Under the pieces are notes generated by a model. The model was not told where the DNA came from. It made no database searches and saw nothing but the letters and a program-made list of their open reading frames with translations. From an uncultured Gammaproteobacteria bacterium (GTDB lineage: Bacteria > Pseudomonadota > Gammaproteobacteria > JAKDMP01): DNA of 64,000 bases. The position numbers and the translations under genes were made by a program. Numbering within the stretch: position 1 is the stretch's first letter; every line of letters begins with the position of its first letter. This document shows, piece after piece, positions 6,762 through 40,170 of this stretch. The stretch spans positions 3,683-67,682 of the forward strand of contig CAZPJI010000009.1 in assembly GCA_964586925.1 (NCBI GenBank), written 5' to 3'.

Positions 6762-8155
6762 GTGTTTCGGGTTCACGCCTGGTGGTGGTATCGAATCGCG
6801 TGGCCGTGCCACGGGCGGGGCGTCCCGCCTCCGGCGGTCTTGCTGTGGCCGTCAATTCTGCGCTCGCCGAGCGGGGCGGCCTGTGGTTCGGTTGGAATGG
6901 CCGCGTTGTGTCGGAGCGTCCTTCGCGTCTGTCGCATCAGCAACGCGGCAACGTCGAATATGCCACCACGGCGCTCAGCTCTGCCGACCATGCGGATTAT
7001 TACCTGGGGTTCGCCAACCGCGTGCTGTGGCCCCTGATGCATGAGAGGCTTGCGATGCTGACCTACCGGCGCCATTATGAGAAGGCTTACCGTAGCACCA
7101 ACGCATGGTTTGCCGAGAGCTTGATGCGCCTGATGCAGCCCAACGACATGGTATGGGTTCACGATTATCACCTTGTGCCGCTCGCCTCCGAATTGCGTCA
7201 GCGCGGCTTTCGGGGTTCGATCGGTTTTTTCCTGCACACCCCGTTTCCTCCGCTCGACATATTGCGTTGCCTGCCCATCTATCGCACATTCCTCGAGTGG
7301 TTGTGCGCCTATGACCTGATCGGGCTGCAAACCGACATAGACCGGCATGCGTTTCTCGATGCGGTTGCTTATGACCTGCATGCGCGCCGGAGCCGCGGGG
7401 GAGGGGTTCGTTTCAATGGACGGGAGACGGCAACAGGTGTTTTCCCGGTAGGCGCGGATGTCGATGAAATCGTGGACCAGGCGCGCCGTGGACGCAGTTC
7501 GCGCCAGGTGCGCTCCTTGAAGCAGAGTCTGGCGGGGCGGCGCCTGATCATCGGGGCGGATCGGCTGGATTACTCGAAGGGACTGATTGAGCGCTTGTGT
7601 GCCTATGAGCACTTGCTTGATGAGCACAAGGAGCTGCACGGGGACATCGTGTATCTGCAGGTTGCCGAACCGTCCCGCTCAGAGGTCCCAGAGTACCTGG
7701 AAATGCGCCACAGGCTGGACCAGATGGCGGGTGAAATCATTGGCAAGCACGCGCGCTTCGACTGGATGCCCATCCGTTACATGAGCCAGCGAATCCGGCG
7801 CCCGACGCTTCTTGCGTTTTTCTCGGCGGCCCGGGTCGGACTTGTCACGCCGTTGCGTGATGGCATGAACCTGGTTGCCAAGGAATACGTGTCCGCCCAG
7901 GAGCCGGGAGACCCGGGTGTGCTGGTGCTTTCGGAATTGGCAGGTGCCGCGCGGGAGCTCGATGCCGCCATGCTGGTCAATCCCTATGACGTCGAGGCTA
8001 CGGGGGATGCTATCGCGCAGGCCCTGAACATGCCACTCGATGAACGCCATGCGCGCTGGAAGCAGCTCATGGCCACGGTGCGCAAGAACGATATTCTCAC
8101 CTGGAGCGAGCGGTATCTGGGGCGCTTGGAAGCGACCCGGCATGGGACGCAGTGA
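6758..8155 (+). CDS. otsA: Alpha,alpha-trehalose-phosphate synthase (GT20)
   Basis: 465 aa. [10 protein letters not shown]-terminus, WVHDYHL, and GT20 family colinearity. Confidence 0.9.
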
Positions 8156-9123
8156 TGCAGAGACTGATCGGTGATATCGGTGGAACAAATACCCGCCTGG
8201 CCCTGGTGCAGGAAGGCACCGAATGGTCGCACATGCAGAGTTTCCGCAACGACGAATACGACTCCTTGGAAGCGGTCATCGAGCATTACCTGCAGTCGCA
8301 CGACGCCCATCCCGATGCCGCGGCGTTGGCAGTGGCAGGTCCAGTGCGCGATGACCGGGTGCGACTCACCAATCGTGGCTGGGTGGTCGATGCCATAGGG
8401 TTGAAGCGGAAATTTTCCCTTGAATACTGCCGCGTGGTGAACGATTTTTCGGCGGTGGCCATGGGTATCCCCGCGCTGGAAGGGGATGTTCTTGAGCAAC
8501 TGGGGGGAGATCGACCCAACAGCGAGGCGCCGATTGCTATCGTGGGGCCGGGCACAGGCCTGGGCGTAGGCGGGATCGTGCCGGGCGACGGCGGAGGGCG
8601 CATTCTCGTGACCGAAGGCGGCCACGCGAGCTTGCCGGCGAATGACGATCAGCAAGCGGCGATCCTGGGCACCCTGCGCCGGCGATTCGGGCACGTGTCC
8701 CGCGAGAGAGTTATTTCCGGCCAGGGCATAGAAAACCTCTATAGGGCGTTGGCCGAGATACAGGGGCTTGATGTCGAGCCGCTCTCCGCGGCCGAGATAG
8801 GCGAAGCAGCAGCCGGGCGCGATGACACGCTGGCCAACGAGACCTTGGACCAGTTTTTCCGATTCCTCGGAGCAGTCGCAGGCGATCTTGCGCTGTCCTA
8901 TGGCGCGTTCGGGGGCGTTTACCTGGCAGGCGGGATCGTACCGCGTTACCTGCAGAGATTCCGCGATTCCGGATTCCGGCAAGCGTTCGAGGCCAAGGGC
9001 CGGATGAGTGAATACCTGAAACCGATTCCTGTTTTCGTTATCCTGCACGAGGAAGTAGAATTGCTCGGGCTTGCGGCAAGTCTTGATGCCCGCGAAAAAA
9101 CAGTTCCCTGGCCCCATCTGTGA
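8152..9123 (+). CDS. glk: Glucokinase
   Basis: 323 aa. The N-terminal LIGDIGGTNTRLALV is the glucokinase ATP-binding motif. It is translationally coupled to otsA by an ATGA overlap. Confidence 0.85.
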   Translation: MMQRLIGDIGGTNTRLALVQEGTEWSHMQSFRNDEYDSLEAVIEHYLQSHDAHPDAAALAVAGPVRDDRVRLTNRGWVVDAIGLKRKFSLEYCRVVNDFSAVAMGIPALEGDVLEQLGGDRPNSEAPIAIVGPGTGLGVGGIVPGDGGGRILVTEGGHASLPANDDQQAAILGTLRRRFGHVSRERVISGQGIENLYRALAEIQGLDVEPLSAAEIGEAAAGRDDTLANETLDQFFRFLGAVAGDLALSYGAFGGVYLAGGIVPRYLQRFRDSGFRQAFEAKGRMSEYLKPIPVFVILHEEVELLGLAASLDAREKTVPWPHL

Positions 9124-9133
9124 GTCAATTGAA

Positions 9134-9991
9134 ATGAATAGGCCCGAAGCGCCAGATAACATTTTGATCAGCCTGATTATTCCCACGTATAACCGCGAAG
9201 AGCTGCTTGTGAACACGTTGCGCTGTGCCTTCGGTCAGGATCGTGACGATTACGAGATCGTGGTGGTCGATCAGACACAGGAGCACGAACCGGCTACCCG
9301 CGATTTTTTGAATGAAAATGCCGGGCGAATAAACTTGGTTCGTTTGCCAACCCCTTCGGTTACTGCGGCTCGCAACGCGGGCATGCGTGTTGCCCGGGGT
9401 GATTTTTTCGTGTTTATCGATGACGATACGAGTTTCGAACCGGATTTTCTTTCCCGTCATCTCGAAGCCCATACGGACGGCATGGGTGCAGTGCAGGGAC
9501 GAGTTACCGAGGACGGCTCTCCGGAGCATGATCACCCTACCTGGGTCAATCGCTGGATTCGCTTCCGGGGCGGAGACAATTGTCCGCATGACGGGACAAC
9601 CAATAACCTGACTGGCTGTAATTTTTCCGTACGGCGCGAAGTGAACGAAAAGATTGGTGGCTTCGACGAGCGTTACATGGGCGTTGCTGTGCGTGAGGAA
9701 TCGGATTACGCCCAGCGGATTATAGCTGCCGGTTACCGCATCGCTTATTCGGCACAGGCTGCAGTATTTCACCATCGCTCGAATCGTGGTGGACACGGCG
9801 AGGGGGGGGATCCCATATTTTTCAACCCCGCGTATTATCAAAGTGAGCTACTTTTTGCCCGTAAGCATTTTTCACCGTTGTCTGTGGCGTTATACCGGGT
9901 GCGGTTAAGATTGCGAGGACGACGTGCGATCAGGCGCCTTGTCAGACAAGCTGATAAAGCAGTGGACAGGGCGTTAAAAATCAAGGAATAA
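9134..9991 (+). CDS. Family 2 glycosyltransferase
   Basis: LISLIIPTYNREELL is the GT-A DXD-fold N-terminus, and a DDD motif (FIDDDTSF) is present. The ATG at 9134 (MNRPEAPDN) is preferred over the ORF-track start at 9071, which overlaps glk. Confidence 0.75.
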   Translation: MNRPEAPDNILISLIIPTYNREELLVNTLRCAFGQDRDDYEIVVVDQTQEHEPATRDFLNENAGRINLVRLPTPSVTAARNAGMRVARGDFFVFIDDDTSFEPDFLSRHLEAHTDGMGAVQGRVTEDGSPEHDHPTWVNRWIRFRGGDNCPHDGTTNNLTGCNFSVRREVNEKIGGFDERYMGVAVREESDYAQRIIAAGYRIAYSAQAAVFHHRSNRGGHGEGGDPIFFNPAYYQSELLFARKHFSPLSVALYRVRLRLRGRRAIRRLVRQADKAVDRALKIKE

Positions 9992-23464: not shown

Positions 23465-24526
23465 ATGGCACGTAAACCACGAACCAAACCTGTGCTCGGC
23501 TTGGACATCAGTACCTCCTCGGTAAAGGTGGTAGAACTGGCCAAGGCCGGCTCATCCTATCGTGCGCAGACCTATGCGGTCGAGCCGATGCCTGACAATG
23601 CCATTGTCGACAAAGTCATCGTGAATATCGAGGGCGTCGGCGAAGCTGTGCGCCGTGCTTACAAGCGCTCGCGCAGCCGCCTCAAGGACGCGGCGATCGC
23701 TATCGGCGGGGCAACAGTCATCACCAAGACCGTACAGATTCCCAAGGGTCTGAACGCGCGCGAGCAGACGGAACAAATCGAATTGATGCTGCCGCGCATC
23801 ATTCCATTCGCGCTCGAAGAAGTGTCCTATGACTTCGAGGAGATTGGTCCTTCCGCAAGCGACGAGAACAGCACGGATATCCTGCTGGTGGCCACCCGGC
23901 GCGACAATGTTGAGCATCGCCAGGCCGTGCTCGAGGTTGCGGGCCTGAAGGCCGCCATAGTGGATTGCGAAGTCTTCGCGCTGGAGAATGCCTACAAATT
24001 ACTGGACGATGCGGTAAACGATAAAGATGAGGACAATGTTGTTGCCCTAGTCGACTTCGGCTCTGCAACCACGTCTTTCAGCGTGTTTGAAAACGGGCGC
24101 ATCATTTATACCCGCGACCAGGCATTTGGCGGCAGGCAACTGACAGACGCGATCATGCAGCGCTACAACCTCTCGTACGAGGATGCCGGACGCGCCAAGA
24201 GGCGCGGAGGACTGCCCGAGTCTTATCATGAAGAAGTCCTGGTGCCTTTCATCAACGACATGGCCCAGCAGGTCAACCGGGCACTGCAATTTTTCTATGC
24301 GGCGACTACCGAGCATACGAAGGTCAAGCAGGTTTTCATTTGCGGCGGCTGCGCATCGATTCCCGAGGCAGCTGAGCACATCGGCGAAAGACTGGACTTG
24401 CCGACCCGAGTTGCCAATCCGTTCACATCGCTCAAGCTGACAGGCCGCGCCCAGGCACAGGGTATCGAACAGGATGCGCCGGGGCTGATGGTTGCGTGCG
24501 GCTTGGCCATGAGGAGTTTCAGCTGA
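23465..24526 (+). CDS. pilM: Type IV pilus assembly protein PilM (actin-like ATPase fold)
   Basis: MARKPRTKPVLGLDISTSSVKVVEL is the PilM N-terminus. It is divergent from mrcA, the classic ponA/pilMNOPQ arrangement. Confidence 0.9.
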   Translation: MARKPRTKPVLGLDISTSSVKVVELAKAGSSYRAQTYAVEPMPDNAIVDKVIVNIEGVGEAVRRAYKRSRSRLKDAAIAIGGATVITKTVQIPKGLNAREQTEQIELMLPRIIPFALEEVSYDFEEIGPSASDENSTDILLVATRRDNVEHRQAVLEVAGLKAAIVDCEVFALENAYKLLDDAVNDKDEDNVVALVDFGSATTSFSVFENGRIIYTRDQAFGGRQLTDAIMQRYNLSYEDAGRAKRRGGLPESYHEEVLVPFINDMAQQVNRALQFFYAATTEHTKVKQVFICGGCASIPEAAEHIGERLDLPTRVANPFTSLKLTGRAQAQGIEQDAPGLMVACGLAMRSFS

Positions 24527-32675: not shown

Positions 32676-33717
32676 CAATCATGACTTCCTGTGCGCCTTG
32701 CGGCGCGAACCGGTCAGCCGTCGCCCGGTCTGGATCATGCGTCAGGCGGGCCGTTACCTTCCGGAGTATCGGGCCATCCGTGAGCAGGCCGGGAGTTTCC
32801 TGAACCTGATGCAGACTCCGGAGTTGGCGGCCGAGGTCACGCTGCAGCCGCTGCGCCGCTATGATCTCGATGCCGCGATCATCTTTGCGGACATACTGAC
32901 CATCCCCGACGCCATGGGTCTGGGGCTGAGTTTCGTGGCCGGCGAGGGCCCGCGCTTCGAGCGGACCTTGACGCGCAAGTCCGAGGCCGACGCTCTGCCG
33001 CTGCCCGACCCCGAGCGAGACTTGGGCTATGTGTTGGCAAGCATCAGCACTGTCGCCCGGGAACTGGACGGCAGCAAGCCCCTGATCGGTTTCTCAGGCG
33101 GCCCCTGGACGCTGGCAGCCTACATGCTCGAGGGGCGGTCAGGCGGTGGCGAGTTCAAGCGTGCGCGCGGAGCGTTGCACTCGGATCCCGAGTTGGGCCA
33201 GGCCATCACGGCGCGGCTCGTGCCCGCCATAGCCGATTACCTGATCGCTCAGGCGCGGGCGGGAGCCGATGCCCTGATGATCTTCGAGAGCTGGGCGGGT
33301 TTGTTGACTCCCGACGGTTTTCGGCGATACTGCCTGGAGCCGGTGGCGGCGATCGTGGAACGTCTCAAGGCCGATCCCGACGCACGTGACAAGCCGTTGA
33401 TCGTCTTCCCCAAGGGGGCCCACCAGCATGCCGCGGAACTGTCGCGTCTCGGTTTGGACGCGCTTGGCCTCGACTGGACGGCCAGCCTGGGCGAAATACG
33501 TAAGGCCGCGGAAGGACGGATAGCTTTGCAGGGCAACCTCGATCCCGCGGCCCTGGTTGCGCCCGAGCCGCAACTGCGAGCCGCCGTGCGCGCGGTCATC
33601 GACGACTACGGCCAAGGCCCGGGTCACGTATTCAACCTCGGTCACGGCATCACGCCCGACATCGACCCCGAACAGCTCGCCATCGTCATCGACGAAGTCC
33701 ACAAAAGCGCGGTCTGA
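32665..33717 (+). CDS. hemE: Uroporphyrinogen decarboxylase
   Basis: PVWIMRQAGRYLPEYR is the URO-D signature. The start was trimmed to the ATG at 32665 (MPVSNHDFL), which overlaps the pyrF 3' end by 11 nt. Confidence 0.9.
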   Translation: MPVSNHDFLCALRREPVSRRPVWIMRQAGRYLPEYRAIREQAGSFLNLMQTPELAAEVTLQPLRRYDLDAAIIFADILTIPDAMGLGLSFVAGEGPRFERTLTRKSEADALPLPDPERDLGYVLASISTVARELDGSKPLIGFSGGPWTLAAYMLEGRSGGGEFKRARGALHSDPELGQAITARLVPAIADYLIAQARAGADALMIFESWAGLLTPDGFRRYCLEPVAAIVERLKADPDARDKPLIVFPKGAHQHAAELSRLGLDALGLDWTASLGEIRKAAEGRIALQGNLDPAALVAPEPQLRAAVRAVIDDYGQGPGHVFNLGHGITPDIDPEQLAIVIDEVHKSAV

Positions 33718-33887
33718 AAACTTTCACAAAGACGTCAGGAAAGCGCCTATTCGAAGTTTGCCATGCGCGCTGCATGATGTGATTGCCAGCAAATCCTTGA
33801 CCCGGATTGTGCCTGACCGTAATCGGGTAATCCTGTGACTAGCTTGCCTCGGAACAAGGTAATGCGGGATTCAAAAGATGCGCTCGA

Positions 33888-34166
33888 CTACTTGCGTTCA
33901 GTTCGGTTTATTTCTGACTTAAGGCGGGTGGCAATACGCTTTCTTGCAACTTCGTCAAGCCGGGTTTCTGCGGTTGCTGATTCCAGGACCTTGCGAAAAT
34001 GACCGGATTTCATCCACCGGCGCAGGAGGGCGAGCTGCTTCTTGTATTGCTGACAACCGTCACACATGTGCAGGTGAAGTCGCAGCATAAGCCGGCTATG
34101 CCAACTGATCGGGTGATCCATTTGATCGGATAGGGTGCGGGCCGCTTCGGCGCAGGTCATCATCAC
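33888..34166 (-). CDS. Zinc-finger (zf-HC2/ZAS-type) anti-sigma factor, soluble
   Basis: 92 aa with HLHMCDGCQQY (H-x3-C-x2-C). A 4-nt overlap couples it to the upstream ECF sigma gene. Confidence 0.7.
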   Translation of the reverse strand: MMMTCAEAARTLSDQMDHPISWHSRLMLRLHLHMCDGCQQYKKQLALLRRWMKSGHFRKVLESATAETRLDEVARKRIATRLKSEINRTERK

Positions 34167-34813
34167 GCTTCATTTCCTGTCGATGGTTGGGAGAACCATG
34201 AGCGTTGTATGCAGTCACGCAGTCCGAGACGTGCGCGATGCAGTCTGACCCACAGATTGGATTTGGAAATACCTATGGAATCACAGACCTCATCGCTGTC
34301 CACGTCGTCGATCTCGATCAATCTGATGGCGACCGAAAGCGTTTTTGGAAGACCGTTGATACAGCGCTCGATCATATTCCAGAACTGGTCGTGCTCTACC
34401 ATGCTGTCAGGGTCTTGCCAAATACCCGGCGGCTTCCGCCAGGCACCTGAGCTGTCGAAGTTGCGTTCCAGAAGCGTATCGTTTCCGGGTTCGATTTCGA
34501 TCTGGATTTCGCGTGTGTTATGTCGGAATTGATCGAGTATCTTGTGCTTGAGGATTCCGAACAACCAGGTCTTTTCACTGGATTTGCCTTGATATTTGCT
34601 ACAGGCGTTAAGGGCTGCAAGTAAACATTCCTGTACGGCATCCTCGGCTTGGGTGCGATGGCGCAATCGTGCATACGCATAGCGAAACATTTCATCCCCG
34701 TATCTGTCCAGCCAGCTTTCTGGATCCAGTTCGTTTTCCCGGGAGGCTTTCTCTGGTGAGTCTTTCACAATAGGATCTCCATCTGGAGGAGGAAGGTTGC
34801 CATCGGCATTCAT
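34163..34813 (-). CDS. ECF (sigma-70 family group 4) RNA polymerase sigma factor
   Basis: Region 2 (FRYAYARLRHRTQAEDAVQECLLAALN) and region 4 HTH (SDEVCDSIGISKSNLWVRLHRARLGLRDC). Confidence 0.85.
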   Translation of the reverse strand: MNADGNLPPPDGDPIVKDSPEKASRENELDPESWLDRYGDEMFRYAYARLRHRTQAEDAVQECLLAALNACSKYQGKSSEKTWLFGILKHKILDQFRHNTREIQIEIEPGNDTLLERNFDSSGAWRKPPGIWQDPDSMVEHDQFWNMIERCINGLPKTLSVAIRLIEIDDVDSDEVCDSIGISKSNLWVRLHRARLGLRDCIQRSWFSQPSTGNEA

Positions 34814-35028
34814 GCGGTTTCTTCAGTGCAACGTCTTGCAATGCATTCCGAATGCGTTTCGATAGCCGAAACCATCTTCCTGACCAGTGCGGGGCGAGAG
34901 AATGACGGGTCGTCCATGTAGTTATTCACACTTGCGGCTGAGAATATTAATACCATAAAAACAATGGCGATCACACCTCCTGCAAACAGGAGATACTCCG
35001 CCACTTGTTTGGAATGTCCTCTGAACAT
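34810..35028 (-). CDS. Small single-pass membrane protein (72 aa) translationally coupled upstream of the ECF sigma gene
   Basis: The hydrophobic core LLFAGGVIAIVFMVLIF, then a Cys/His-containing tail (HSECIARRC). An ATGA overlap couples it to the sigma gene. Confidence 0.45.
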   Translation of the reverse strand: MFRGHSKQVAEYLLFAGGVIAIVFMVLIFSAASVNNYMDDPSFSRPALVRKMVSAIETHSECIARRCTEETA

Positions 35029-35111
35029 GTTCCTCTCCTTGAGTTCTGCATTGGATCATCCCTGCCAAGCTTCCGTTGCTCTCCGTTGTGCAAAGCAATG
35101 GAAAGGGGTGA

Positions 35112-36077
35112 TCATCGAGATATTGCCACCTTCGATGCGCTCAAAATGGGGTTTGATCGAGACCGTTTACCTGTGCCGGTAAGCGTCACGTAACCGGCAC
35201 CGAGAATCGCTCCGTACACGAGGCTGAGCACCAGTAAAAGTGCGACGCCTACCCATCCGAAACGCCATGCGAAGAGACCGGCGTGTCCGAGAGGCGCAAC
35301 TGTCAACATAGCGAGCAACCAGGCGCCGAAACCGAATAAGGCACCACGTACGGCTGAGTGGCCCGGGAGGTGCGGATAGAGCCAGGCGAAGGCCAGCCCC
35401 CCGATGACGATTGCCGCAATGAGGAATATCATCCATCCGCCGATAACACCTGTATGGGTGGCTTTGCCGATCAGCATCGCTGGGTCGAGCCCCGGCAATA
35501 CACCGTTTAGTGTCTTGAGCAGCAGGATGGCGCTGAGTGCGGCAGTCGCCATGAATGCGGCGCCTCCGCCGCCCAACCAGCGGTTGAGGTCTGCGTATGC
35601 GAGCGTTGAGTCGGCGGGTTTGAAGCCACTCGGGAAAAGCCGTGTGAGCAAGTGATCCAGAGAGAGCCGGCCCGGGCCGTAAAAGGTCAGTGCCAATAGC
35701 ATGAGTCCCCAGGCTTGGTGGTCCGGGAAACCCGTTGACCAGATGTCGGGGTAAGATGCGACGGCAATGATGTTGTAGACGAACAGGAAACCGGAAACGT
35801 ATCGCCCCATCAGACCGAAAGCCAGAAGCGCCGGAAACACGAGTTCTGCGAAAGTGCCGGTATAAGCGGCGACGGCAGGGCTGAGCAGGGGAGTGTGGTA
35901 GACGTATTTAAACAGCGCAATAGTGCCGGGCATGTCCGCAATTTTGGTCAACCCGGAACGGAAAAAGGCTTCGGCGATCCATAGTCTCATGAGAAGCATG
36001 GCAAGGGGTGTCGAATAGGCGAGCCAAGCGTTCACCCGTTGGGATAATCCCAGTCCGCTTCGTACGATGTTCTTCAT
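35112..36077 (-). CDS. DoxX-family integral membrane protein (bufferin-operon BufD-like)
   Basis: Multiple TM helices. DoxX-like N-terminus (LAMLLMRLWIAEAFFRSGLTKI). The ATG at 36077 with a GGAGA RBS is preferred over 36140. Confidence 0.75.
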   Translation of the reverse strand: MKNIVRSGLGLSQRVNAWLAYSTPLAMLLMRLWIAEAFFRSGLTKIADMPGTIALFKYVYHTPLLSPAVAAYTGTFAELVFPALLAFGLMGRYVSGFLFVYNIIAVASYPDIWSTGFPDHQAWGLMLLALTFYGPGRLSLDHLLTRLFPSGFKPADSTLAYADLNRWLGGGGAAFMATAALSAILLLKTLNGVLPGLDPAMLIGKATHTGVIGGWMIFLIAAIVIGGLAFAWLYPHLPGHSAVRGALFGFGAWLLAMLTVAPLGHAGLFAWRFGWVGVALLLVLSLVYGAILGAGYVTLTGTGKRSRSNPILSASKVAISR

Positions 36078-36862
36078 CTTGATTCTCCGAGTGTCGATGT
36101 GGCGGCGAAGATGCCAGCCGTATGGTGGCGTTGTAAGCACGCCTCAAGGTCGAACGAATCGCTCGATTCTTCGGCGCATGCCAGTGCCGCAGTCAAGCAC
36201 GCCCCGTTCGCGCAGGCGTCGAGAAACACATACTCTCCGGCATCCAGTGCCAGTACCAGAACGTCGTCATGAGGTCGTACGATCAAAACGCGCTCGCTAC
36301 CAGCGTTCAGCGCAGGTGGTTCGCCGGGCTCGTCCTCGAGGCAGTAACGCCACAGCGTCAGGACCGGGTATTGAGACGCCACAAGCCGGACGCTCGGATG
36401 GATCGGCAGCCGTTCGTTGCCGGGGAGAATCGAGGCCGGGTCGAATGGATTGGCGTCGGCCGCGAGCAGCGCTTCCTGTCGTGCCCATTCGAGCCGGGCG
36501 ATGTCGGCCAGATAGGGGATATTTGCCGCCTCGGGAAGGTGAGCCAGAAAATCGGCGAAGCCGGCACCGTATCGATTGAGATCTCCGTACGAGGAAGGAT
36601 GTGCGCCTACGAAACGTTGGGTGGCGCCTTCGAAAAAGTCGTCGCCCACGAGTCGCGCCACGGCGGGGAAGCTCGTAAGCAGGGCATCGGTGAAATTGAG
36701 CAGGTAACTGTTGCGGTACACGGCCATGCGTGCTGCTGGCGTCAGTCCGGCGCCGTGCACCCATTGCAGCACGCGGCTATCTTCGCCGCGAACGTGGCGG
36801 ACAAATTCCTGCTGGGTTTCAAGCAGCGCAGGCACGTGTTCTCTCCAAAATCGACTCGGCAT
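36074..36862 (-). CDS. DUF2063 domain protein (MNIO partner, BufC/MbnC-like)
   Basis: N-terminal DUF2063 signature (LTPAARMAVYRNSYLLNFTDALLTSFPAVARLVGDDFFEGATQRFVGAHPSSYGDLNRYG). It overlaps the 3' end of the DUF692 gene. Confidence 0.8.
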   Translation of the reverse strand: MPSRFWREHVPALLETQQEFVRHVRGEDSRVLQWVHGAGLTPAARMAVYRNSYLLNFTDALLTSFPAVARLVGDDFFEGATQRFVGAHPSSYGDLNRYGAGFADFLAHLPEAANIPYLADIARLEWARQEALLAADANPFDPASILPGNERLPIHPSVRLVASQYPVLTLWRYCLEDEPGEPPALNAGSERVLIVRPHDDVLVLALDAGEYVFLDACANGACLTAALACAEESSDSFDLEACLQRHHTAGIFAATSTLGESR

Positions 36863-37697
36863 GATTTGCTTCGTCCAACAGGGTCTCCAGCGGCGGGATG
36901 TCGCGGTCCCACTCGATCAGGGTCGGTCGCGGTCCCAGGCGCCCGATGGCATGGGTATAAAGATCCCAGACCGGCGTCGCGACGCGCCTGCTGTGCGTGT
37001 CGATGAGTAGGGTCACGCCTTGCACATCTTTGCGAATGTGTCCGGCAAGATGAATTTCCTCGATCGCTTTGACCGGCATCGCGTTCAGATAGTGGTATGC
37101 GTCGAAAGCGTGGTTGACCGCGTTCACGTAGATATTGTTGATGTCGAGCAGAATGCCGCAGCCGCTGCGCTGAGCGAGTTCTGCCAGAAATTCCCATTCC
37201 GGGATGATTGAGTCTGTGAATTCAAGGTAGCTGGATACGTTCTCGATCAGGATTCGCCGGCCGAGAAATTCCTGCGTCTGCTCGACGCGTTCAACGATGT
37301 GGGTAAGCGCCTCCGCCGTATAGGGCAGGGGCAGGAGGTCGTTAAGGTGTACGCCTCCGGCAGCACCCCAGCATAGATGCTCGGAAACCAGGCCGGGAGA
37401 AAACCGATCGACCAGGGACTTTAATTGTGCAAGATGCATGTCGTCGAGCGGGTCCGTCGAGCCCAGTCCCAGGCCTACCCCATGCAGGCTCAGCGGGTAC
37501 TCGCAACGCACTTTTTCCAACAGTCGCAATGTCGGACCACCGGCGGCAAAAAAGTTTTCGCTATGGACTTCAATGAAACCAACTGCCGGTCGACGCTCAA
37601 GTAGTTGGGAGTGATGCGGCGGCCTGAGGCCGATCCCGGCGTGTGCCGGGATCGACTCCAGTGCCGGACACGAATGCTGTCGCGCCGGGGATGACAT
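36819..37697 (-). CDS. DUF692 / MNIO (multinuclear non-heme iron-dependent oxidase, MbnB/BufB-like; TIM-barrel)
   Basis: GIGLRPPHHSQL...VGFIEVHSENFFAAGG...YPLSLHGVGLGLGS...VSEHLCW...DLLPLPYT...RRILIENVSSYLEF matches the HI1600/MbnB family consensus. Confidence 0.85.
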   Translation of the reverse strand: MSSPARQHSCPALESIPAHAGIGLRPPHHSQLLERRPAVGFIEVHSENFFAAGGPTLRLLEKVRCEYPLSLHGVGLGLGSTDPLDDMHLAQLKSLVDRFSPGLVSEHLCWGAAGGVHLNDLLPLPYTAEALTHIVERVEQTQEFLGRRILIENVSSYLEFTDSIIPEWEFLAELAQRSGCGILLDINNIYVNAVNHAFDAYHYLNAMPVKAIEEIHLAGHIRKDVQGVTLLIDTHSRRVATPVWDLYTHAIGRLGPRPTLIEWDRDIPPLETLLDEANHAESILERTRACAA

Positions 37698-38008
37698 CAG
37701 CCGGCGTTACCGGGTGTGGTGCTGCCGCCCGCGATCTTATGACATAGCCCCGCCGGAACGAGCAGAAATGCGCTCGGATCGCGGGCCTTTTTATCCTGTC
37801 CGGCGCAGGAGTGCCCCGGCGATTGGCAATCGTTCTTGAAGGCCGCGTTGATGCCGTAGCATTTTTCCATGCTGGTGCTGGTGGGCATTGTTTTCATCGC
37901 GTGTGCCTGGCTCATGTTGCCGGCAAAAGCGCCTTGAGTGCCCGCAAGAGTGCTTGCCGCGACGAGGCTGGCAAGGGCCGATTTGATGACGAGTGAACGT
38001 TTATCCAT
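37697..38008 (-). CDS. DUF2282-type Cys-rich secreted precursor peptide (bufferin BufA-like)
   Basis: 104 aa. Sec signal peptide (MDKRSLVIKSALASLVAASTLAGTQGAFA), then a core with four Cys in the conserved pattern EKCYG-x8-NDC-x5-HSCAG-x17-GLC. RBS GGAGA ahead of the ATG at 38008. An ATGA overlap couples it to the MNIO gene. Confidence 0.75.
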   Translation of the reverse strand: MDKRSLVIKSALASLVAASTLAGTQGAFAGNMSQAHAMKTMPTSTSMEKCYGINAAFKNDCQSPGHSCAGQDKKARDPSAFLLVPAGLCHKIAGGSTTPGNAG

Positions 38009-38079
38009 GAAAATATCTCCAATAAATACAAGTACATAAAAGTCACAACCCGCTTTGTTATTGGGATGCAACTGCGAGT

Positions 38080-38107
38080 TAGTCGGGTGAAAGATAGATT
38101 CCTTACA
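38080..38107 (-). promoter_or_regulatory. Candidate ECF-type promoter (GTAAGG-N15/16-CGAC) about 70 nt upstream of the precursor gene
   Basis: The reverse complement reads tGTAAGGaatctatctttcaccCGACtaac. It resembles the GTAACC-N16-CGAA class of ECF promoters. This is inference only. Confidence 0.3.
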
Positions 38108-38481
38108 AAAATTCCACTGCATGGCAGATTTAGAGGAACAACAGGGGATGCTCACCCCTCGCCCTTTTCATAAGAGACTGTTTTCTCCGCCGGATGGCAT
38201 AAGGACTATTTAGCCCGGTGGGGCTGAGGGCTACCTGGACCGTTCCCGGCTTTCAGGCACGGCCAAGTGAACGATAGTCTTGGGGGCGCGGGGGGATGAA
38301 TAAGTTGGCCGTGGGCTTTGCGACAGTAACCCGAGAAGAGTCGTTCGCTGATCCGCCAGGACGGATCTCGAGGGTTATGGAGTACCAGTCAAGTGTTTTC
38401 TTTTGCGCCTTCGCGAGCTGCATTCCTTGCCGGCCTATCACCGGGTCGTCAGCGTCGAGGGCCGGGTCGCTGCCTTCCTGC

Positions 38482-40170
38482 TCAGTTGCCCCCGTGGTTC
38501 TGGGGCAGTTGTGCCTCGCGCAGTTCCTTGCGCAGAATCTTGCCGACGTTGGACTTGGGCAACTCGTCGCGGAACTCGACGTGCTTGGGCACCTTGTAGC
38601 CGGTCAGGTTTTCGTGCGCGTAGGCGATGATGTCTTTCTCGGTCAGTTTGGGATCCTTGCTGACCACGAAGACCTTGACCGCCTCATTGGAATGCTTGTC
38701 GGGTACGCCGATGGCGGCGACTTCGACAATGCCGGGCATGTGGGCGAGCACATCCTCGACTTCATTCGGATACACATTGAAGCCCGAGACTACGATCATG
38801 TCCTTCTTGCGGTCGATCAGGTAGGCATAGCCGTTTTCGTCCACGCGTGCCACATCGCCCGTGCGCAGGAAACCGTCTTTGAGAAAAACCTTCTTCGTCT
38901 CATCCGGGCGGTTCCAGTAGCCGCGCATGACCTGAGGGCCGCGCACGCACAATTCTCCGGATTCACCCACTGCGACTTCTTCGCCCTCGTCGTTGCGGAT
39001 GGAAATGTCCGTCGAGGGAACCGGCAGGCCGATGGAGCCGGTGTAGTCCTTGATCGTCAGCGGGTTGGCGGTGACCACGGGCGAGGTTTCGGTCAGGCCG
39101 TAGCCCTCGATCAGCGGGATGCCGGTGAGTTTTTTCCAGCGCGCGGCGACGGCGCGCTGTACGGCCATGCCGCCGCCGAGCGCGAACTTAACATGTGAGA
39201 AGTCCAGGCTGTTGAAGTCATCATTGTTCAATAGCGCGTTATAGAGGGTATTGACACCGCTTATGGCCGTCCATTGCGTTTTCTTCAGCGTCTTGACGAA
39301 GTCCGGGATATCTCGCGGGTTGGTGATGAGTATGTTTTCACCGCCGAAGTGAATCATCACGAAGGCGTTTACCGTCAGCGAAAAGATGTGATAGAGCGGC
39401 AATGCCGTGATGATTTTTTCCTCGCCGAATTCGAACAGATCACCGATCCAGGCGCTGAGTTGCAGCGCGTTGGCGATCATGTTGCCATGCGTCAGTTCCG
39501 CACCCTTGGCCACACCCGTCGTGCCGCCGGTGTATTGCAGGAAGGCCAGGCTGTCATGATCAAGCTCTGTTTCCGGCAACTCGTGCCGGCTGCCGGCCTG
39601 GAGGCAGTCCTTGAAGCCGATTGCGCCCTCGATGGTCCAGTCGGGCACCATGTGCTTCACCTTCTTGACCACGAAATTGATCACGCTGCCCTTGAGGCCG
39701 GGCAGCATGTCGCCCATGCGCGTCACGATCACATGCTTGATGTCGGTGCCTTCCATGGCCTGCTCGAGCGTGTGCGCAAAATTGTCCAGCACGATAGCGG
39801 CCGTGGCACCGGAATCCTTAAGCTGGTGCGCCATTTCGCGGCGCGTGTAGAGCGGGTTGAAATTGACCGCGACCAGGCCGGCGCGCAGTACGCCGCAAAG
39901 CGCAACCGCGTACTGCAGGATATTGGGCATGATCAGGGCGATCCGGTCGCCCGCCTGCAGACCGAGTTCCCCACGCAGAAAGGCGCCGAAGGTAGCGCTC
40001 TGGCGGTCGAGTTCGGCATAGCTGATTGCGTGGCCAAAGTTGGAGAAAGCGGGACGGTCCGGATACTGGCTGAATGCTTCCTGCATGAGATCCACGAGCG
40101 ATGAGTAGCGGCTCATGTCAATCTTTTCTGGCACACCTTCGGGGTAGTTCTTCAGCCAGATTTTTTTCAT
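38482..40170 (-). CDS. fadD: Long-chain-fatty-acid--CoA ligase
   Basis: 562 aa. AMP-binding motif (YTGGTTGVAKGA) and the FadD-like N-terminus MKKIWLKNYPEGVP. Confidence 0.9.
   Translation of the reverse strand: MKKIWLKNYPEGVPEKIDMSRYSSLVDLMQEAFSQYPDRPAFSNFGHAISYAELDRQSATFGAFLRGELGLQAGDRIALIMPNILQYAVALCGVLRAGLVAVNFNPLYTRREMAHQLKDSGATAAIVLDNFAHTLEQAMEGTDIKHVIVTRMGDMLPGLKGSVINFVVKKVKHMVPDWTIEGAIGFKDCLQAGSRHELPETELDHDSLAFLQYTGGTTGVAKGAELTHGNMIANALQLSAWIGDLFEFGEEKIITALPLYHIFSLTVNAFVMIHFGGENILITNPRDIPDFVKTLKKTQWTAISGVNTLYNALLNNDDFNSLDFSHVKFALGGGMAVQRAVAARWKKLTGIPLIEGYGLTETSPVVTANPLTIKDYTGSIGLPVPSTDISIRNDEGEEVAVGESGELCVRGPQVMRGYWNRPDETKKVFLKDGFLRTGDVARVDENGYAYLIDRKKDMIVVSGFNVYPNEVEDVLAHMPGIVEVAAIGVPDKHSNEAVKVFVVSKDPKLTEKDIIAYAHENLTGYKVPKHVEFRDELPKSNVGKILRKELREAQLPQNHGGN

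Follow-up and report, generated by a model that had tools for sequence, protein, structure and literature searches.

A probable bufferin-1 precursor gene at the head of a compact seven-gene unit in an uncultured gammaproteobacterium

Identification of a bufferin-1 precursor gene

Bufferins, also called captophorins, are ribosomally made, post-translationally modified copper-binding peptides with which bacteria take up surplus copper in the periplasm. The DNA analysed here, referred to as the window, is a stretch of 64,000 nucleotides (nt) from an uncultured Gammaproteobacteria bacterium (GenBank assembly GCA_964586925.1, contig CAZPJI010000009.1, positions 3,683 to 67,682). Positions 37697-38008 of the window very probably encode bufA1, a bufferin-1 precursor, that is, the gene of a copper-binding peptide made by the ribosome and modified after translation (RiPP) that heads a compact seven-gene unit. 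Every defining feature of BufA1 that can be tested on a sequence was found, namely the PF10048 domain, signal peptide features, four cysteines, and linkage to BufB, DUF2063 and DoxX. bufA1 is a fresh instance of the well-described bufferin family, in a standard operon with a few local peculiarities. The features of the gene are as follows.

37697-38008, minus strand: bufA1, bufferin-1 precursor of 103 amino acids; coordinates include the TGA stop; PF10048 match
38016-38020, minus strand: Shine-Dalgarno sequence GGAGA, 7 nt ahead of the bufA1 ATG, read directly from the sequence
37721-37870, minus strand: DUF2282 domain, residues 47-96 (Pfam envelope)
37859-37861, minus strand: CysI (C50), Cys codon in the DUF2282 domain
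37826-37828, minus strand: CysII (C61), Cys codon in the DUF2282 domain
37805-37807, minus strand: CysIII (C68), Cys codon in the DUF2282 domain
37742-37744, minus strand: CysIV (C89), Cys codon in the DUF2282 domain

The bufA1 frame runs from ATG 38008 to the TGA at 37697-37699 and comprises 103 residues, or 104 codons with the stop. An earlier examination of the letters alone (the sequence-only reading) had placed an open reading frame with a ribosome-binding site at this position; both are real, and the product length of 104 amino acids that it gave counts the stop codon. The same 103-residue protein (MDKRSLVIKSALASLVAASTLAGTQGAFAGNMSQAHAMKTMPTSTSMEKCYGINAAFKNDCQSPGHSCAGQDKKARDPSAFLLVPAGLCHKIAGGSTTPGNAG) was called independently, and identically, in the NCBI and Logan assemblies.

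BufA1 scored 70.8 bits against Pfam PF10048 (DUF2282, now named BufA1; gathering cut-off 22.4), with residues 47-96 covering profile positions 1-52 of 53. Among 5.8 billion proteins searched, 951 BufA1 relatives were recovered, all of which carry PF10048, and a profile search of 1.84 billion cluster representatives gave 1046 clusters at an E-value of 0.001 or below. Several close relatives bear the NCBI name 'BufA1 family periplasmic bufferin-type metallophore'. In the genome collection the closest BufA relatives came from metagenome-assembled genomes of uncultured Gammaproteobacteria, with BufA identities of at most 61%. Together with the BufB-type MNIO, DUF2063 and DoxX genes downstream, the PF10048 match bears out the identity as a DUF2282 bufferin-1 precursor that the sequence-only reading had proposed.

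The four cysteines are spaced C-x10-C-x6-C-x20-C, a pattern found in all 120 of the best homologues and far more regular than chance would produce. A pattern that varied between orthologous loci, one of the two outcomes that would have refuted the sequence-only reading, was thus not observed. The earlier description of the spacing was right about the four cysteines and about the x10 and x20 intervals; the middle interval, given as x7, is x6, and x7 is the value of Caulobacter Buf1 and was probably carried over. Among the 150 best representatives at 50% identity, the loop between CysII and CysIII was x6 in 115, x7 in 11 and x8 in 12. As x6 is the commonest loop among these relatives, the window peptide belongs to their majority type and the studied Caulobacter peptide to a rarer one. 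In an alignment of 121 sequences the invariant columns were C50, N54, A55, N59, D60, C61, H66, C68, A69, G70, D77, P85, G87, C89, G94 and G95. Two motifs had been called invariant. SCAG deserves the term (S 99%, CAG 100%); within EKCYG, conservation is restricted to C (100%), Y (87%) and G (99%), while K occurs in 47% of the sequences and E is not the majority residue. A six-frame regular-expression search found the four-cysteine pattern once in the window, in the bufA1 frame, and this search together with tblastn found no second bufferin or MNIO gene there.

Some DUF2282 relatives among the representatives from the profile search (P0168, P0186, P0209 and P0222) lack CysIII: after C-x10-C the next cysteine is CysIV, as in CFGINAAGKNDCRTATTAGPGK...C. 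These relatives would have a single modifiable cysteine, and therefore may form a distinct bufferin subtype.

Signal peptide, methionine-rich arm and fold

Two further segments of the precursor precede the DUF2282 domain.

37922-38008, minus strand: predicted Sec signal peptide, residues 1-29, with cleavage at AFA/GN; n, h and c regions, conserved -3/-1 residues, helix 4-22 in the AlphaFold2 (AF2) model
37862-37921, minus strand: Met/His-rich arm, residues 30-49 (GNMSQAHAMKTMPTSTSMEK), between the cleavage site and CysI

The signal peptide was assessed by heuristics (n, h and c regions, hydropathy and family alignment). It has an n-region MDKR and an h-region at about residues 5-22 with a maximum Kyte-Doolittle 11-residue mean of 2.04, followed by A-F-A at residues 27-29; in the 121 aligned sequences Ala occupies position -3 in 86 and position -1 in 94. 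Neither a twin-Arg motif nor a lipobox Cys is present in the BufA1 N-terminus. This heuristic check, with small residues conserved at -3/-1 across the 121 sequences, agrees with the cleavable signal peptide of the sequence-only reading, which would have been refuted by its absence. Cleavage by signal peptidase after Ala29 would leave a mature peptide of 74 residues, for which monoisotopic masses of 7549.51 Da (unmodified) and 7539.43 Da (with two thiooxazoles and a disulfide, -10 Da) were computed. The tryptic peptide of residues 59-73, NDCQSPGHSCAGQDK, contains both Cys61 and Cys68.

The arm of the window peptide holds four Met and one His in 20 residues, including an MxxM motif (MKTM). Across the 121 aligned relatives, Met makes up 20.9% of the spacer versus 1.7% of the DUF2282 domain, and at least three Met occur in the spacer of 79 of the 120 homologues. 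Many relatives carry Met runs there, such as MKMTPAMMKMKK. The arm resembles Met motifs known from periplasmic Cu(I) proteins, and it may bind Cu(I). No mention of a Met-rich arm in bufferins was found in the bufferin literature searched.

An AF2 model built from a 33-sequence alignment had a mean pLDDT (predicted local distance difference test score) of 62, with values of 85-88 over residues 81-100. It contains a helix at residues 4-22, a disordered stretch at 22-40, and strands at 47-51 (with C50) and 81-85; residues 55-58 and about 89-91 (with C89) form helical turns. In the published description of the Buf1 model, two beta strands form a sheet that is accompanied by a short helix; CysI sits on strand 1 and CysIV on the helix. 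The strands and short helices of the window model appear to agree with this. Neither a sequence search of the Protein Data Bank nor a Foldseek search with the AF2 model found a structural relative, so this fold has no solved structure.

Arrangement of the buf gene cluster

All seven genes lie on the minus strand in the order bufA-bufB-bufC-bufD(doxX-DUF6789)-orf72-sigma-antisigma, and most junctions overlap. The genes downstream of bufA1 are the following.

36819-37697, minus strand: bufB, MNIO (DUF692) bufferin maturase, 292 amino acids; NF050167 MNIO_BufB 393.8 bits, cut-off 310
36074-36862, minus strand: bufC, DUF2063/HvfC_N partner, 262 amino acids from ATG 36862; PF09836 84.7 bits, cut-off 27.2
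35112-36077, minus strand: bufD, DoxX with a C-terminal DUF6789, 321 amino acids; PF07681 51.5 bits, PF20587 44.1 bits
34810-35028, minus strand: orf72, predicted single-pass membrane protein of 72 amino acids; called as a gene in an independent assembly
34163-34813, minus strand: extracytoplasmic function (ECF) sigma factor, TIGR02943 family; TIGR02943 165.3 bits, cut-off 162.2; Sigma70_r2 and r4_2 domains
33888-34166, minus strand: soluble zinc-finger anti-sigma factor, 91-92 amino acids; zf-HC2 23.1 bits (cut-off 22.2), NF052368 59.5 (cut-off 50)

The bufB ATG overlaps the bufA TGA by one base (TGATG, 37695-37699), which is the coupling to an MNIO gene that had been noticed before, and BufB also matched Pfam PF05114 (MbnB_TglH_ChrH) at 364 bits. 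The bufD start overlaps the bufC stop; for bufC, an independent gene call begins at 36835 and gives 253 amino acids. The one-base bufA/bufB overlap is common to loci L082 and L084, and other loci have about 10-180 nt between the two genes. Synteny was assessed over 81 loci, that is, 80 related genome loci and L001, which is the window sequence in another assembly. In the same order, bufB was present in 76, bufC in 73 and doxX in 69 of them, and the order bufA-bufB-bufC-doxX was found in about 70 of the 80 related loci. Three of these loci (L071, L073 and L074, from Pseudogulbenkiania subflava DSM 22618) are an identical buf1 locus on three contigs of one assembly, two of them even at the same contig coordinates, which reflects either a genuine multi-copy region or a duplication in the assembly.

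Besides the window, the DoxX-DUF6789 fusion was found only in one protein of 63% identity (cluster P0274), in sister locus L082 (4133-5068). Within flanks of ±6 kb, separate DUF6789-like genes lie on the bufA strand, 0.2-5.4 kb off, in five other buf1 loci (L024 ~7628-8098, L044 ~109-594, L047 ~8983-9500, L048 ~9532-9810 and L051 ~2250-2718). Several of the stand-alone DUF6789-like proteins are strikingly Met-rich, for example MPMAGAGLFGMHMGMMAP. The recurrence of this membrane domain points to DUF6789 as an unrecognised accessory component of bufferin systems; the literature searched held nothing relevant on it.

The product of orf72 has a C-terminal C-x4-C. The gene is preceded by a strong ribosome-binding site (AGGAGAGG), has a GC content of 0.47, and its stop overlaps the sigma start (ATGA). 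It gave no Pfam or NCBIfam match and had no homologue among 83 related loci, and its membership in the bufferin system is uncertain. The anti-sigma factor carries an H-x3-C-x2-C motif (HLHMCDGC) and no hydrophobic segment. The genes flanking the string are housekeeping genes: hemE, pyrF, and genes for an acyl-CoA ligase, a 2-hydroxyacid dehydrogenase and KefB- and Kup-type transporters.

A candidate ECF-type promoter upstream of bufA1

The following element was predicted upstream of bufA1.

38079-38106, minus strand: predicted ECF-type promoter GTAAGG-N15-CGACTAA; conserved blocks in the closest loci, from which its function is proposed

The -35 box, GTAAGG, lies at 38101-38106 and the -10 box, CGACTAA, at 38079-38085; with its leading base the bipartite motif is TGTAAGGAATCTATCTTTCACCCGACTAA (38079-38107), and transcription would start near 38072. 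In an upstream alignment of the window with L082, L083 and L084, GTAAGG and CGAC(T/A)A, 15 nt apart, were the sole conserved blocks. In 15 of the 80 related loci, GTAA[GT]-N15-18-CGAC was found 70-105 nt upstream of bufA, whereas the background rate is 0.004 per 130 nt. Each of the six loci with a homologue of the window sigma factor (36-40% identity) has it, as do 9 of the 74 without one; positions elsewhere include L004 5905, L006 5901, L016 5896, L051 2808, L060 5847, L071 5915 and L082 ~2090. The experimentally defined sigmaF site that drives buf1 in Caulobacter, GTAACC-N16-CGAA, has a similar form (PMC3511200). We propose, from this pattern, that the ECF sigma factor encoded in the operon reads the promoter at 38079-38106. 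With the sigma gene located downstream in the string that this promoter serves, such wiring would create positive feedback, which the soluble thiol/zinc-type anti-sigma factor would gate.

Homologous sigma/anti-sigma pairs lie near buf1 in L004, L060 and L071/73/74 in the opposite orientation, and L051 has a sigma homologue only, with no anti-sigma match. L071 carries several extra copies of the motif, which suggests a small regulon.

A promoter scan found no sigma-70-type promoter upstream of bufA. An Rfam E-value scan of 33500-38700 found no riboswitch or leader upstream of bufA; a Trp_leader match at 34955-35009, inside orf72, stayed below threshold (28.5 bits, gathering score 41) and was judged to be due to chance. 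Comparison of the bufA upstream region with the 83-nt gap before orf72 gave no convincing common motif. TGTAA-N16-19-CGAC at 23636 and 27646 lacks the CGACTAA box and is at chance level (three window matches, 1.0 expected). The ECF18-type consensus GCATCC...CGTAT (PMC13492112) was also rejected: GCATCC occurs twice upstream of bufA, with no matching -10 and no conservation. Terminator-like matches were at chance level (four found, 4.4 expected). A stem-loop (GGGGTGAGCATCCCC) at 38143-38159 on the minus strand, followed by a T-rich tract, lies between the end of the acyl-CoA ligase (fadD-like) gene at 38482 and the bufA promoter; plausibly it terminates transcription of that upstream gene, and it would insulate the buf operon.

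Proposed maturation and the metal served

In Caulobacter vibrioides Buf1, CysII and CysIII are converted to 5-thiooxazoles (-4.03 Da each) and CysI and CysIV form a disulfide (PMC11626156). BufB and BufC are necessary and sufficient for the modification and DoxX is not required, and the signal peptide is removed in the mature form and is dispensable for modification (PMC11626156). Copper is bound 1:1 through two N and two S (KD for Cu(II) ~6e-15 M, KD for Cu(I) ~7e-20 M; PMC11626156). That Buf1 protects against copper stress is known for C. vibrioides only. The 5-thiooxazole assignment was later confirmed for bufferins and extended to the EGKCG branch (10.64898/2025.12.15.693703; PMC13097082).

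From the features of the window and by homology with this peptide, a pathway can be proposed for the window. Transcription from the ECF-type promoter, about 64 nt upstream of the ATG, would be driven by the TIGR02943-type sigma factor of the operon once the anti-sigma factor lets go. The 103-residue precursor would be translated from ATG 38008, and the TGATG seen in the sequence would couple translation of bufB to it. In the cytoplasm, BufB and BufC would oxidise Cys61 and Cys68 to 5-thiooxazoles, each by a four-electron oxidation. After Sec export and cleavage by signal peptidase I behind Ala29, the 74-residue product would fold into a small two-stranded-sheet domain with a Cys50-Cys89 disulfide. 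The two thiooxazoles would then form a 2N+2S site with very tight binding of Cu(I) and Cu(II), and the mature peptide would chelate and buffer periplasmic copper; more speculatively, Cu(I) capture might be aided by His66, which is invariant, and by the Met-rich arm at the N-terminus.

Several points weigh against this reading. Modification, export and metal binding are all transferred from a relative with a CysII-CysIII loop one residue longer (x7 versus x6), the case for the signal peptide is purely heuristic, and the AF2 model is of only moderate confidence. BufC (55 versus 142, HvfC) and DoxX (51 versus 80, HvfX) scored below the NCBIfam equivalog cut-offs; these models belong to the sister EGKCG branch, so the scores were not counted against membership in the Buf1 family. 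The regulators are unlike the Caulobacter paradigm of SigF and the membrane protein NrsF, and therefore the inducing signal could differ.

This last point gives rise to the strongest of the alternatives, which we nevertheless consider improbable: that the peptide is a genuine bufferin whose metal or trigger is something other than copper, possibly cytoplasmic thiol-reactive stress (Cd, Au, Hg, chromate or disulfide stress). It was considered because the operon encodes a soluble zinc-finger anti-sigma factor of 91-92 amino acids, with HxxxCxxC and no membrane segment, and not the periplasm-sensing NrsF. Chromate and cadmium, and not only copper, induce the Caulobacter buf operons (PMC3511200), gig operons are gold-responsive, and MerC-Buf1 fusions suggest other metals (PMC11626156; PMC12452194). 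However, Buf1 chose copper from a metal mixture (PMC11626156), the Met-rich arm of the subfamily is typical of periplasmic Cu(I) binders, and no mercury, cadmium or gold resistance genes adjoin the operon. Copper binding is retained as the favoured reading; the other alternatives are unlikely.

Among these, it is very improbable that the product is a small protein with cysteines, periplasmic or membrane-anchored, that stays unmodified, and that the MNIO acts on another substrate. The old Pfam description of DUF2282 was 'predicted integral membrane protein', and a sizeable share of Buf1 genes elsewhere is unlinked to an MNIO gene (PMC12452194). In the window, however, bufA and bufB overlap by one base and their order is kept in about 70 of 80 loci, a conserved AxA cleavage motif closes the sole hydrophobic segment, and no other Cys-rich candidate substrate was found in the 64 kb; cleavage and modification of Buf1 have been shown experimentally (PMC11626156).

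A methanobactin-style outcome, in which the MNIO would install oxazolone-thioamide groups and not 5-thiooxazoles, is given slightly less credence still. Oxazolin and MovA were first assigned that structure, and the isomers are hard to distinguish, but those assignments have been revised to 5-thiooxazole, and selective labelling confirmed 5-thiooxazole in bufferins (PMC13097082; 10.64898/2025.12.15.693703). The window MNIO reached 393.8 bits on the BufB model and only 61.4 (cut-off 325) on the MbnB model.

Start codon of bufA1

The sequence-only reading had reported that the mechanically derived frame runs 147 nt further upstream, and this is exact: the longer frame starts at GTG 38155 and would encode 152 amino acids. 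That it is the real gene, with the hydrophobic segment internal, is the least credible of the alternatives; the frame is open from 38155, but the 147-nt extension has a GC content of 0.40 (0.45 at third codon positions) versus 0.60 (0.68) in bufA1, no ribosome-binding site was found ahead of GTG 38155 or ATG 38122, and homologues are 88-117 amino acids long and align from M1, an invariant column. Upstream DNA of the closest loci retains only the two short promoter boxes, with indels elsewhere and no coding-type conservation, and both alternative starts are upstream of the predicted promoter. In 2012 the annotated frame of Caulobacter CC3254 was noted to be over-extended at its N-terminus in like manner (PMC3511200). 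ATG 38008 is therefore taken as the true start, because the ribosome-binding site, the GC drop upstream, the homologue N-termini, the independent gene call and the placement of the promoter all favour it.

Comparison with known MNIO-associated systems

The closest studied system is Bufferin 1 of Caulobacter vibrioides (BufA1, CCNA_03363 / CC3254; buf1ABCD; PMC11626156). In both, the precursor belongs to DUF2282, carries a Sec signal peptide and has four conserved cysteines, the gene order is precursor, MNIO, DUF2063, DoxX, and an ECF sigma/anti-sigma pair lies nearby. The cysteines of Caulobacter Buf1 are Cys12/23/31/52 (x10/x7/x20), compared with x10/x6/x20 in the window, and its mature peptide has 68 residues, whereas that of the window is predicted to have 74 and carries the Met-rich N-terminal arm. 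Unlike buf1, the window operon has a one-base bufA/bufB overlap and a DoxX fused to DUF6789. The gene for its soluble zinc-finger anti-sigma factor sits at the 3' end of the operon itself, whereas in Caulobacter a separate sigF operon encodes NrsF (DUF1109), which has six transmembrane segments. Published Buf1 clusters have membrane-located anti-sigma factors of this NrsF type.

The gig operons (gigPABT of Cupriavidus metallidurans and GIG of Legionella pneumophila) are likewise four-gene Buf1-type clusters; metals induce them, and an ECF sigma/anti-sigma pair adjoins them (RpoQ/RsqA in C. metallidurans). The anti-sigma factor of C. metallidurans is membrane-bound and divergently transcribed, whereas the window sigma gene is co-oriented and downstream in the same string. 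For C. metallidurans it could not be shown that gig depends on RpoQ (PMC13492112).

BufA2 peptides (BUF_6/12Cys) are also Sec-exported, are modified by a closely related MNIO and DUF2063, and bind copper via thiooxazoles, but have six or twelve cysteines and no DoxX, sigma or anti-sigma genes in the cluster. Identity with BufA2 was rejected, as the window peptide has four cysteines and scored 22.4 bits on NF050166 (cut-off 60).

EGKCG captophorins (oxazolin, fontiphorin, gonophorin and bulbicupramide) share the 5-thiooxazole chemistry of an MNIO and DUF2063, the frequent DoxX neighbour and the copper role (PMC13097082). Their precursors, which hold many copies of the EGKCG repeat, are predicted to be unstructured, whereas the window peptide has a single folded DUF2282 domain. 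The EKCYG of the window merely resembles EGKCG; its cysteine is CysI, which by homology with Buf1 would be a disulfide partner and not a modified residue. With one EKCYG, no repeats, and E and K not conserved among relatives, identity with this branch was rejected.

Methanobactins (MbnA/MbnB/MbnC) are, like bufferins, copper-binding RiPPs with an MNIO acting on Cys, but they contain oxazolone-thioamide groups, their short leader-dependent precursors are not Sec-exported, and the MNIO partner is MbnC. A methanobactin system was set aside for the window on the MbnB score above (model TIGR04159) and on the MNIO partner, which is DUF2063 and not MbnC.

Discussion

The Met-rich arm, the DoxX-DUF6789 fusion and the bufA/bufB overlap are the only parts of the operon that go beyond what the searched literature describes. 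A bolder reading, offered as a tentative idea that is less likely to hold than to fail, would make the x6-loop BufA1 a functionally distinct variant. Its invariant C-Q-S-P-G-H-S-C loop places a His two residues before CysIII, and its disordered arm, about 21% Met, would serve as a Cu(I) antenna feeding the thiooxazole site. In this lineage the operon would be self-amplifying, through its own ECF sigma factor, the GTAAGG-N15-CGACTAA promoter and a soluble cytoplasmic thiol/zinc-sensing anti-sigma factor, with DUF6789 recruited through fusion to DoxX as an accessory part of bufferin pathways.

For the largest family of MNIO-modified peptides, the window adds one more example from an uncultured lineage, and its practical value is modest. 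The precursor was correctly picked out as that of a RiPP by a tool-free reading of raw sequence. The corrected start, the predicted mature peptide with its mass and the candidate promoter are useful for expressing this bufferin. The Met arm, the DoxX-DUF6789 protein with its recurrent DUF6789 neighbours, and the ECF/zinc-finger module with its promoter motif could guide work on the role of DoxX and on metal sensing in bufferin systems.

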